From assembly GCA_019721075.1 (NCBI GenBank), contig JAHEAD010000002.1, positions 152,949 through 216,948 on the forward strand: a stretch of DNA of 64,000 bases, in the 5' to 3' direction. A program made the position numbers and the translations under genes. The notes beneath the pieces are model-generated. The model was not told where the DNA came from. It saw only the letters and a list, made by a program, of their open reading frames with translations, and made no database searches. Shown here in pieces: positions 9,938-13,272 of the stretch. Within the stretch, counting starts at the first letter, position 1; the number at the start of each line of letters is the position of its first letter. Source of the DNA: Candidatus Sysuiplasma jiujiangense. GTDB lineage: Archaea; Thermoplasmatota; Thermoplasmata; Sysuiplasmatales; Sysuiplasmataceae.

Positions 9938-10648
9938 ATGCATAGCGCGCTGAAGGAAAAGATTGCAGGAGAAATCGTTCTCTCTGCGGATCCCGGGCGC
10001 ACGATGAAGAAGTGGCGAGAAGAATTCCACCTGAGCCAGCTTGAGCTGTCGAGGGAGCTGAAAATATCCGCCTCAGTGATCAGCGACTATGAATCCGGGC
10101 GAAGAAAATCGCCCGGAGCCTCCATGGTCAGGAGGTACGTTGAGGCAATGATCAGTCTGGAGCTCAGGAGCGGCGGAAGGTTTATCAAGCGCTTTGACAC
10201 CGAGGCGACACCCGATTACCTTCTGAGCATGAGGGAATTTTCCAGATCCATTCACCTTGATGAGCTCATTTCAGCAATAGACGCAGAAAACCTTTCAAAG
10301 GAAGTGAGCACTGACCGATACCTTCATGGTTATACCCTGCTGGACAGTATAAAGGCCATAACCTCGCTTGGCTCCGCTGATTATCTGAAGATATTCGGAT
10401 GGAGCAGCCAGAGAGCACTGATTTTTACTAGCGTGAAATTCGGCAGGTCTCCCATGATAGCGGTAAGAGCCCATCCGATGAAGCCTGCTGCTGTAGTGTA
10501 TCACAGGCCTGAAAACATCGACCAGCTGGCCATACTGCTGTCTAAACTTGAAAACATACCGCTGCTCAGAAGCGACATAGAACAGAGAGACATGATAGAA
10601 ATACTGGAAAAATTCGGAGATGAAAACAGTGATGTTCGGACAAAGTGA
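9938..10648 (+). CDS. XRE/HTH transcriptional regulator of the family commonly upstream of archaeal HMG-CoA synthase
   Basis: [21 protein letters not shown]...[24 protein letters not shown]. Confidence 0.85.
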
Positions 10649-11699
10649 AAATGGTGCAGGCATAGTGAGTTACGGGGCATACGTGCCCAGATTCAGGATA
10701 CTGCCGGAGGAGATTGCCAGGATCTGGGGAGAGAACGGAGACGCAGTGAAAAAGGGACTGATGATATACAGCAAGTCAGTCCCGTACCCCGACGAGGATG
10801 TCATAACAATTTCGGTGGAGGCGGCCAGGAATGCCCTCGCGAGATGTTCCGTAGACCCTGAAGAAATCGGGGCAGTCTATGTGGGAAGCGAATCGCATCC
10901 GTATGCAGTCAAGCCTTCAGGCACCATAGTTGCGGAGGCCATTGGCGCTTCGCATTTTATTACAGTGGCTGACTACGAGTTCGCATGCAAGGCGGGGACA
11001 GCCGCGATGCAGACAAGCATGGGACTCGTGATTTCCAGGATGGTGAAATACTCTCTGGCAATAGGTGCAGATACTTCACAGGGTGCTCCGGGAGACGCGC
11101 TCGAATATTCGGCTTCCGCCGGCGGTGCGGCATACATTATCGGAATAGACAACATTATTGCCAGCATAAACAGGACCTTCTCGTTCACTTCAGACACTCC
11201 AGACTTCTGGAGGAGAGAGGGACAGGCATATCCGAGCCACGGGGGGAGGTTTACCGGGGAGCCTGCCTATTTCAGGCATGTGAGCACCTGTGCAAAGGAA
11301 CTCATGAAACTCCAGGGCACGACTGCAGACGATTACGACTACGCCGTATTCCATCAGCCAAACGGTAAATTTCCCACGAGGGTGGCGCAGATGCTAGGTT
11401 TCGAGAAAAAGCAGTTTGAGACGGGCCTGATGACGCCGTACATCGGCAACACATATTCCGCATCCATGATGATCGGACTTGCTGCGATCCTCGACATTGC
11501 AAAGCCCGGGGACCGCATATTCGGTGTTGCGTTCGGTTCGGGGGCAGGAAGCGACGGATTCGACATCACCGTCACGGACGCAATGAACGGTTTCCACAGG
11601 GAGAACGCACCGACTGTAAAGCAGCTAGTGGAAAATTCGGAAACGCTCGACTACGGCACATATGCCAAATTCAAGGGAAAAATAGTCATGAAGGAATGA
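10620..11699 (+). CDS. mvaS: Hydroxymethylglutaryl-CoA synthase (archaeal type)
   Basis: [11 protein letters not shown], catalytic [21 protein letters not shown]. Confidence 0.95.
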
Positions 11700-12868
11700 T
11701 GATGAGAGAAGTGGCGATTATCGGGATAGGCGACACGCGTTTCGGAGAACTCTGGGAACACTCTCTCAGGGACATAGGCATGCAGGCCGGCCTTTCAGCA
11801 GTCGGCGATGCCGGCATAACAGGCGAGCAAATAGAGGCGCTCTATATCGGCAACATGGCCGCCGGAAGCCTGATCGACCAGGAACACCTCGGGGCGCTTG
11901 TTGCGGATTATTCAGGCCTTGCCTCGCTCCACCTGCCCGCAGTGCGTATCGAGGCGGCCGGTGCATCCGGCGGAATGGCACTGAGAGAGGGATATATGGC
12001 AGTTGCCTCCGCCATGCACGATATTGTGATGGTGGCCGGAGCTGAGAAAATGACGGACGTGACAGACGAGGAAATACCGCGAATACAGATGGCAGGCGGC
12101 GATCAGCAGTGGGAAGGGCTTACGGGAGCAACAATGGCCAGTCTTCATGCCATGATAGCAAAGAGGCACATGCATGAATACGGCACCACGAGGGAGCAGA
12201 TAGCCAGCGTTTCGGTGAAGAACCACAGGAACGGCTCAATGAATTCGACTGCACAGTACCAGAAGGCTATAGACATCAGCACGGTGCTGAAGGCACCGAT
12301 GGTTTCTGACCCCCTTGGAGTGTTCGACTGCGCACCGATTTCAGACGGATCCGCGGCACTCATACTTGCACCGCTCGAGGCAGCAAAAAAATACGCCCAG
12401 GAGCCGGTGGTCATTGCCTCATCTTCGGCGGCAACAGATACACTCGCCCTTCACCACCGCGAAAGCATAACGAGATTCGACTCCGTCCGTGTTGCCTCAA
12501 ACAATGCATACAGGAAGGCAAACGTCAGGCCAAAGGACATTAAGATTGCAGAAGTCCACGATTCTTTTACCATTTCGGAAATACTGAACATAGAGGATCT
12601 CGGATTTTTTGAAAAGGGGAAGGGCGGTGCAGCCACGCTGGAAGGAATGACAGAAATAAACGGCGTTGTCTCGGTCAACACCTCAGGCGGACTGAAATCC
12701 AGGGGAGATCCCATGGGAGCAACCGGCATCGCGCAGGCGGTAGAAGTCGTGAGACAGCTGCGGGGCCAGGCGGAAAAGAGACAGGTCAGCGATGCGGAAT
12801 ACGGCCTGTCGCTCAATGTGGGTGGAACAGGTGCAACATCGGTTGTTCACATATTCAGGAGGGCTTAG
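11696..12868 (+). CDS. Thiolase-fold protein (archaeal acetoacetyl-CoA thiolase family) with substituted catalytic residues
   Basis: [33 protein letters not shown]; but EAAGASG, HDSF and GDP replace EAACASG, HDCF and GHP. Confidence 0.9.
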
Positions 12869-12870
12869 AA

Positions 12871-13272
12871 ATGGCAAATCCCAGGTACTGGAGAGAAAAT
12901 CCAAGCAGATATACACTCCTCGGTGTGAAGTGCGGTAACTGCAGTGGCGTCTTCTTTCCGCCCAGGGCCATCTGTCCAAGATGCAGGAGGAAGAGCCTCG
13001 GTAAGATAAAACCGTACAGGCTTTCAGGAAAAGGAAAAGTGTACTCTTATACGCTCGTGCATGAGCCGATGCCGGACTTTTCCCTCATGAGGCCGTACGT
13101 GATGGCAATGGTCGAGATGGACGAGGGAGTGAGAGTGACGGCGCAGATAGTCGACTGCAAACCGGAGGACGTCAGCATAGGAATGAAGGTAGAGGCGATA
13201 TTCAGGAAACTCGGTTCTGAAGGAAACTCGGGAATAATACGGTACGGATACAAATTCAGACCGGCGGTTTAG
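12871..13272 (+). CDS. DUF35 Zn-ribbon/OB-fold protein (thiolase-HMGCS scaffold)
   Basis: CGNC...FPPRAICPRC, GKVYSYT, YGYKFRP. Confidence 0.92.
   Translation: MANPRYWRENPSRYTLLGVKCGNCSGVFFPPRAICPRCRRKSLGKIKPYRLSGKGKVYSYTLVHEPMPDFSLMRPYVMAMVEMDEGVRVTAQIVDCKPEDVSIGMKVEAIFRKLGSEGNSGIIRYGYKFRPAV

Follow-up and report, generated by a model that had tools for sequence, protein, structure and literature searches.

The window analysed here, a stretch of 64,000 nucleotides of Candidatus Sysuiplasma jiujiangense DNA, harbors three adjacent genes for 3-hydroxy-3-methylglutaryl-coenzyme A (HMG-CoA) synthase (HMGCS), a thiolase-like protein and a DUF35 adaptor, and the thiolase-like protein has lost the nucleophilic cysteine of thiolases. 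The protein is an orthologue of the archaeal acetoacetyl-CoA thiolase, the loss is spread across the class Thermoplasmata, the partner subunits are intact, purifying selection on the subunit is strong, and thiolase II co-occurs with it. Probably, the Cys-less thiolase is a pseudoenzyme that serves as a scaffold for HMGCS after its displacement by thiolase II.

According to the proposed mechanism, the gene is a vertical orthologue of the acetoacetyl-CoA thiolase of the archaeal HMGCS/thiolase/DUF35 complex, whose product, judged by the established thiolase mechanism, should be unable to form the acetyl-cysteine intermediate and hence would be no thiolase. The subunit would be kept because HMGCS needs it: it would assemble with DUF35 and HMGCS and give its half of a fused CoA site, a role suggested by the homologous complex and by conservation. 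Thiolase II, in the window's genome (G000) most likely the product of G000:C1:259936-261189, would supply acetoacetyl-CoA by diffusion, as the co-occurrence suggests, and HMGCS would then join acetoacetyl-CoA with acetyl-CoA, yielding HMG-CoA. As for the history, thiolase II may have been gained before the nucleophile was lost, and other active-site residues may have decayed afterward under a selection that holds the fold and the interfaces. An obligate structural role appears to be the simplest account of the retention.

Catalytic residues of the operon thiolase and their loss across the class

The thiolase-like protein scores 527 bits against the PRK06064 profile (cut-off 420, passed) and 543 bits against NF053570 (cut-off 600, missed). 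Its best solved relative is the thiolase of Methanothermococcus thermolithotrophicus (PDB 6ESQ chain A; E 9.9e-103, 45% identity), to which an AlphaFold model of the protein (mean predicted local distance difference test score, pLDDT, 79.8; predicted template modelling score, pTM, 0.86) has a TM-score of 0.93. The true start of the open reading frame (ORF) is likely a later ATG; the homologues are mostly 388 aa long. The residue numbers of 6ESQ given below are counted from its alignment with the window protein.

11696..12868, + strand: SCP2-type archaeal acetoacetyl-CoA thiolase orthologue without the nucleophile; unbroken ORF, 390 aa
11960..11962, + strand: Gly89 (codon GGT), replacing the nucleophile Cys85 of 6ESQ (the EAACASG Cys) in the alignment
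12557..12565, + strand: H288-D289-S290 of the HDxF loop; His kept, Ser290 (TCT, 12563-12565) replaces Cys286
12707..12709, + strand: Asp338 (codon GAT), replacing His336 of the GHx loop; 6ESQ reads GHA

Codon reading and the 6ESQ alignment thus confirm the full-length ORF and the Gly89, Ser290 and Asp338 codons described in an earlier note on this DNA. That note had counted three lost catalytic residues; the nucleophile Cys and the GHx His indeed belong to them, while the Cys of HDCF is a variable residue, since HDAF is found in P. furiosus 7YVY, in BbsB and in 2/37 Cys-bearing operon thiolases. In PMC12960953, archaeal thiolase motifs are defined as CxS, HDxF and GHx, and H284A, the exchange of the His of HDxF, abolishes HMG-CoA formation in the model complex. 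His288 of the window protein is the counterpart of this essential His and is retained, although four of the 21 closest homologues have Asn at this position. As read from the sequence, therefore, the loss is certain for two defining residues, and the third replacement falls on a variable position: the fold, the family and the HDxF His of an active thiolase are found here, and the CxS Cys and the GHx His are not. Because the nucleophile is absent, acetoacetyl-CoA could not be channelled from an active thiolase site in the way described.

Contigs from four runs of four studies span the stretch and are identical at the codons for Gly89, Ser290 and Asp338, three of these runs being flagged as a possible source of this DNA; most runs that contain the stretch are metagenomes of mine drainage and tailings. 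Within the thiolase ORF, the run contigs differ only at positions 11908 and 12012. The former difference is silent; at the latter, G in all four runs gives Gly106, which is conserved in both the intact and Cys-less groups, in place of Ala106 in the window. Either strain variation or assembly error may account for the two differences.

Among the best 120 database matches, many of which are titled Thermoplasmata or Methanomassiliicoccales, 0/120 have the cysteine and 120/120 have Asp338. In the tree, genomes of the window's class are intermixed with records under such Thermoplasmata titles, which places the class as Thermoplasmata. In a survey of 150 genomes of the same class, Thermoplasmata, the operon thiolase was read by alignment in 131, of which 125 are without and six with the Cys, and seven further genomes read from HMGCS-centred loci are all Cys-less (7/7). 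Among the 19 genomes without a strong thiolase match, seven have an HMGCS orthologue, and a thiolase gene adjoins it in 7/7; neither HMGCS orthologue nor operon was found in 12/150. The nucleophile is accordingly missing in 132 of the 138 genomes with the operon found and in 24 of 27 families, the families keeping it being f2, f5 and f13. It is also kept in all named Methanosarcinales, Micrarchaeota and Hadarchaeota rows and in several other Thermoplasmatota rows. In the class as a whole, genomes without the nucleophile form the majority, and the change cannot be taken as a peculiarity of this locus, as the earlier note had it. Except for single stops inside the matches in three hits, no frame-breaking stops were found. 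In four genomes rated 94-99% complete (G072, G097, G146, and G056), HMG-CoA reductase was found and HMGCS was not, and G072 gave no match with either thiolase query; assembly gaps are probably the reason for the absence of HMGCS in these genomes.

Independent losses of the nucleophile are suggested. The free thiolase tree has two state changes and the HMGCS tree three, and the Cys-less families f18 and f19 are placed next to the intact f13 in the free trees; the approximately unbiased (AU) test does not reject a single origin of the Cys loss (p 0.245). Paralogues and long-branch or duplicate rows (L033, L034, L036, L037, L046, L047, L048, and L094) were left out of the thiolase tree and of the column comparison described below, and L045 and four duplicates additionally out of the latter. 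In the operon thiolase of f19, the replacement of Cys by Ser is the sole change compared with intact f13, so that f19, as far as its sequence tells, looks like an early stage of the loss.

Both the loss of the motif and the idea of compensation by thiolase II have been published before. Hoshino and Gaucher (2018) (PMC6107057, supplement section 3) described HMGS-syntenic homologues of acetoacetyl-CoA thiolase without the CH motif in several Thermoplasmata, Crenarchaeota and Chloroflexi species, called these proteins relatively divergent, and proposed compensation by archaeal paralogues or thiolase II, leaving the choice open. The synteny with HMGS, the loss of the CH residues, and the presence of thiolase II or an intact paralogue in the genome are all found here as well. 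The passages at hand from that paper hold no counts, selection analysis or reason for the retention; what is added here is the majority state, the selection at the level of HMGCS, and a family, f6, which leaves thiolase II as the only candidate. A literature search, to which most subscription papers were out of reach, found no paper on a scaffold role or an assay, and the passages seen of bioRxiv 2024.07.05.601840 contain no statement of either.

Selection on the Cys-less subunit and state of its partners

The nonsynonymous to synonymous substitution ratio (dN/dS) was calculated by the Nei-Gojobori method in disjoint close pairs, and pairs with saturated dS were dropped (19/60 Cys-less and 4/8 intact thiolase pairs). 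The median dN/dS of the Cys-less thiolase is 0.063 (41 unsaturated of 60 pairs, maximum 0.305), and that of HMGCS in the same 60 pairs is 0.060 (43 unsaturated). The ratio of thiolase dN to HMGCS dN is 1.02 in Cys-less versus 0.99 in intact pairs, of which there are only eight (p 0.39). Purifying selection on the Cys-less thiolase is equal to that on HMGCS. Selection is looser in some f10 and f6 pairs, whose dN/dS of 0.11-0.31 exceeds that of their own HMGCS. Between the window and its nearest relative dN amounts to 0.075, dS being saturated.

The partners and the candidate CoA-site residues of the thiolase-like protein are as follows.

10620..11699, + strand: archaeal HMGCS; tetrad E91-C123-H245-N277 intact; R210, K250 and R254 present
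12871..13272, + strand: DUF35 adaptor (zinc ribbon and oligonucleotide/oligosaccharide-binding fold); Pfam PF12172 and PF01796; Zn cysteines C21, C24, C35 and C38 intact
12329..12331, + strand: Cys212, equivalent to 6ESQ Cys206, candidate fused CoA-site residue; retained, Cys in 139/153 Cys-less rows
12695..12697, + strand: Lys334, equivalent to 6ESQ Lys332, candidate fused CoA-site residue; retained, Lys in 152/152 Cys-less rows covering the position

The HMGCS ORF overlaps the thiolase ORF by 4 bp, and the DUF35 gene begins 2 bp past the thiolase stop, so that the window has the three adjacent genes of an HMGCS/thiolase/DUF35 complex; a promoter and terminator scan gave no signal above shuffled sequence. 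HMGCS scores 562 bits against NCBIfam PRK04262 and 552 bits against TIGR00748, both above cut-off, and, when its residues are mapped by alignment to 6ESQ chain I, the catalytic Cys is present together with the rest of the tetrad, just as the earlier note had stated. Residue counts in this text refer to 153 unique Cys-less rows next to an E-C-H-N HMGCS; 10 duplicates of 200 rows were dropped, together with the rows lacking such an adjacent HMGCS. The HMGCS tetrad is intact next to 153/153 of these, and the adjacent DUF35 has all four Zn Cys in 151/151 rows. The PMC12960953 supplement puts forward C206 and K332 of thiolase and R203, K243 and K247 of HMGCS as candidates for the fused CoA site. 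The HMGCS equivalents, assigned like the others by pairwise alignment, are R210 in 153/153, Lys or Arg at position 250 in 153/153, and Lys or Arg at position 254 in 144/153.

Compared with the Methanothermococcus complex, therefore, the adjacency of the three genes, the HMGCS tetrad, the Zn ligands of DUF35 and the named CoA-site residues are kept here, whereas Cys85, Cys286 and His336 are replaced, which would make the thiolase step and the channelling unworkable as described. PMC12960953, citing Vogeli 2018, states that, when expressed singly, archaeal HMGS has no activity and the thiolase is insoluble; it also states that homologous bacterial complexes require all three subunits despite one being catalytically emptied. 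PhlABC (PpATase), MucABC (SmaATase), and PfACAT/HMGS-DUF35 resemble the present case, as described in PMC12960953, in being tripartite with one emptied subunit that is still required, but they are its mirror image: there HMGS is without E-C-H-N and the thiolase has its Cys (in the Friedel-Crafts acylases PhlABC and MucABC, both CxS and GHx), while in the window it is the thiolase that is emptied, next to an intact HMGCS. A second cluster of family f22 (L261/L276, G131:C2:43474-47234; L262, G059:C1:94642-98402) resembles PfACAT/HMGS-DUF35: its thiolase has C/H/A/H intact, its HMGCS-like gene is without E-C-H-N (F-T-H-D), and a DUF35 match, possibly fused, lies about 1 kb away.

Directly upstream of the operon, one more gene abuts that of HMGCS.

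9938..10648, + strand: helix-turn-helix (HTH, XRE-type) regulator gene; Pfam HTH_19/HTH_3

In loci with 3-kb flanks, a homologue of this regulator is found in 36/37 Cys-less and 17/32 Cys-bearing operons, and Methanosarcinales and some Micrarchaeota loci also carry one close to the operon. The HTH gene is, on these gene neighborhoods, an old conserved neighbor of the operon and not specific to the Cys-less form, and its product is a candidate regulator of the mevalonate entry operon.

Thiolase II and the proposed source of acetoacetyl-CoA

The earlier note had proposed that acetoacetyl-CoA may come from another route and that the genome be searched for another intact thiolase. A Pfam search of G000 detected seven thiolase-family genes, of which three are catalytically complete; tblastn with the operon thiolase finds only five thiolases and misses both classical ones. 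The complete ones are the thiolase II at C1:259936-261189, which among solved structures is closest to bacterial acetoacetyl-CoA thiolases (4E1L and 4N44, for example), another classical thiolase at C34:87275, and an archaeal-type one at C54:65446, located in a DUF35/dehydrogenase cluster. Three more SCP2-type homologues in G000 are also nucleophile-less, namely, C12:114993-116135 with NTSGSGG, a motif shared with Sulfolobus ST0096 (PDB 4YZO), and C1:252175-253437 and C4:7011-8462 with GGATGG. G000 also encodes HMG-CoA reductase. Mevalonate kinase and a MvaD-like phosphomevalonate decarboxylase homologue with a score under the cut-off are encoded as well (C3:10392-13607 = L288; C1:47070-50270 = L289), which suggests a possible haloarchaea-type lower mevalonate route.

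The other route receives comparative support. In a sample of 141 genomes, with the threshold for a thiolase II homologue set at E 1e-70 or better, 137 have one: 126/126 genomes with a Cys-less operon, 0/3 with an intact operon, and 11/12 with no operon found. Outside this sample, thiolase II was found in 4/6 Cys-less and 1/3 intact genomes. The catalytic C/N/H/C set is complete in 49 of 50 thiolase II copies inspected, the remaining one being truncated. The clearest case is f6, a family of small genomes grouping with Methanomethylophilaceae records. In 8/8 f6 genomes scanned with PF00108, four of them single-contig, no thiolase was found other than thiolase II and the Cys-less one; the four f6 genomes tested have HMG-CoA reductase and gave no match for 3-hydroxyacyl-CoA dehydrogenase, acyl-CoA dehydrogenase or carboxyltransferase. 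Leucine or malonyl-CoA routes were considered and rejected, as a PF01039 carboxyltransferase was not found in 5/5 genomes searched, that is, G000 (97% complete) and four f6 genomes.

The thiolase II gene is rarely linked to the HMGCS operon (2/49 genomes, both f19). In both cases (G044, L271:1501-6329; G118, L275), thiolase II and a 3-hydroxybutyryl-CoA dehydrogenase gene are divergent from HMGCS, with 115 bp between the ORFs in G044. In 18/49 genomes belonging to five families, thiolase II comes after tiaS (tRNA-Ile2 agmatinylcytidine synthetase-like, under the NCBIfam cut-off), as in L031 (G000:C1:258526-262299) and in loci of f4, f6, f24, and f26.

Weighing of the explanations and significance

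Several points weigh against a pseudoenzyme scaffold fed by thiolase II. A dN/dS as low as that of an active enzyme would also be expected from a new function. The Lys334 of GGLK and Cys212 are also present in paralogous SCP2-type thiolases outside the complex, so that keeping them does not point to the HMGCS interface in particular. His177 (KNH) is invariant in both groups (153/153 Cys-less rows); it is here read as structural. On the side of supply, the two further complete thiolases in G000 leave several candidates that could feed the mevalonate pathway, and thiolase II must have other jobs too, because it is located beside a 3-hydroxybutyryl-CoA dehydrogenase gene in 24/49 genomes. No full thiolase II was found in Cys-less G015 (74% complete) and G004 (80% complete, fragment only), and intact G024 (72% complete, outside the sample) has one. 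Moreover, the sampled genomes are related and their counts overstate independence, and the intact state rests on three families.

Whether the emptied site is dead or repurposed can be judged from the residues that replaced the catalytic ones. The earlier note had suggested a survey of orthologues for the same G/S/D pattern; the Cys loss proved to be class-wide, and the residues vary, with 48 combinations at positions 89/288/290/338 in the 153 rows. Position 89 is occupied by G123, S11, T8, D5, N3, and E3 (G, N or S in the 21 closest homologues), and position 338 by Q49, D37, R19, Y17, N14, H13, and others. His288 survives in 133 rows and is lost in 20; both His (288 and 338) are present in 9/153 and the His/Ser/Asp set of the window occurs in 13/153. 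The 45 Cys rows share 112 conserved columns; in the 67 Cys-less rows, 80 of these are still conserved and 14 are lost, clustering in the three motifs and at 131-151; six columns are newly conserved (G, N, A, A, S, and T). The replacement residues are not fixed, which argues against one new chemistry.

This bears on a neofunctionalised Cys-free enzyme, which might be an aldolase of the Ltp2/Sal type, a TbSLP-like malonyl-CoA decarboxylase, or a Ser-His-Asp thioesterase. The Cys-less ketosynthases of beta-branching cassettes would be a further model for a Cys-free malonyl-CoA decarboxylase. Enzymes with a Cys-less thiolase fold and a DUF35 partner are known, and both the fixation of Asp338 in the best 120 matches and the strong purifying selection would fit a new reaction, but the scattered residue sets, including the Asn at position 288 in close homologues, do not, and the missing PF01039 match in the five genomes means that no standard malonyl-CoA source was found for a malonyl-CoA-based role. 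The steroid aldolases Ltp2-ChsH2(DUF35) and Sal-Shy(DUF35) (PDB 6OK1 and 9MYR; PMC12329534) share the thiolase fold, the repurposed catalytic residues and the binding to DUF35; they differ in identity (~23-25%), in a DUF35 derived from a hydratase and not from an HMGCS operon, and in their catalytic residues, given in PMC12329534 as Tyr294/Tyr344 in Ltp2 and Tyr302/Cys304 in Sal, which are absent here. When positions are matched by motif and the 50-residue spacing instead of direct alignment, the Tyr pair of Ltp2 corresponds to His288 and Asp338 in the window protein, and 0/153 rows have both Tyr. From the alternative left by the earlier note, a scaffold or a neofunctionalised enzyme, it is the pseudoenzyme scaffold that comparative evidence favors and the Ltp2-like aldolase that finds no support, there being no conserved replacement set either; new chemistry of any of these kinds is very unlikely. 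A scaffold with an additional task, in which the emptied site senses ligands or holds an intermediate by binding CoA, acetyl-CoA or acetoacetyl-CoA, or serves as a dock for thiolase II, and thereby regulates or feeds HMGCS, is unlikely, too. Selection as strong as that on the active partner, the retained CoA-site residues and the preference for Gly, which enlarges the pocket, at position 89 are in its favor. Relaxation of columns 131-151, 213, 291, 340, and 343, several of which would line the pocket according to the thiolase structure, speaks against it, as do the lack of newly conserved catalytic-looking columns in HMGCS and the scarce linkage of thiolase II to the operon.

The complex might also still make HMG-CoA from acetyl-CoA alone, with the acetyl-cysteine of HMGCS as the electrophile and the Cys-less subunit helping to enolise acetyl-CoA via the shared CoA site. 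The conserved operon, HMGCS tetrad and CoA-site residues, and the frequent His288 and invariant His177, would agree with this idea; however, the H284A exchange on its own is enough to stop HMG-CoA formation in the model complex, 20 rows have lost His288, and the near-perfect co-occurrence with thiolase II would stay unexplained, so that it has only a very slight chance of being correct. Taken more broadly, a Cys-less subunit that is not inert, be it in such a thiolase-free Claisen synthesis via the HMGCS acetyl-cysteine or in another Cys-free acyl-CoA reaction, is improbable. Lastly, sequencing error, regarded as unlikely already in the earlier note, was rejected on the identical codons in the four runs, and the 132/138 relatives' genomes without the nucleophile agree with this. 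A recent pseudogene drifting to loss finds some support in the raised dN/dS of f10 and f6 pairs and was rejected as a general explanation on the median dN/dS, with stops in only three hits; the chance of either is negligible.

The channelling complex generally features in accounts as the means by which archaea drive the uphill thiolase step. Should the Cys-less thiolase be a pseudoenzyme scaffold, most of one archaeal class would have given up channelling, would use a bacterial-type enzyme instead, and would keep the old subunit as an obligatory pseudoenzyme. In Methanomassiliicoccales-like methanogens, isoprenoid synthesis would then likely begin with thiolase II, and the annotation "acetyl-CoA acetyltransferase" would have to be corrected in a large group of genomes. 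If, instead, the subunit is not inert, most Thermoplasmata, including the Methanomassiliicoccales methanogens, would enter the mevalonate pathway in a new way. Since the motif loss is already in print, the value of the present case would lie in the mechanism of retention: intact forms, forms with loss of the Cys only, and forms with multiple losses make up a natural series for how enzymes in obligate complexes become pseudoenzymes.

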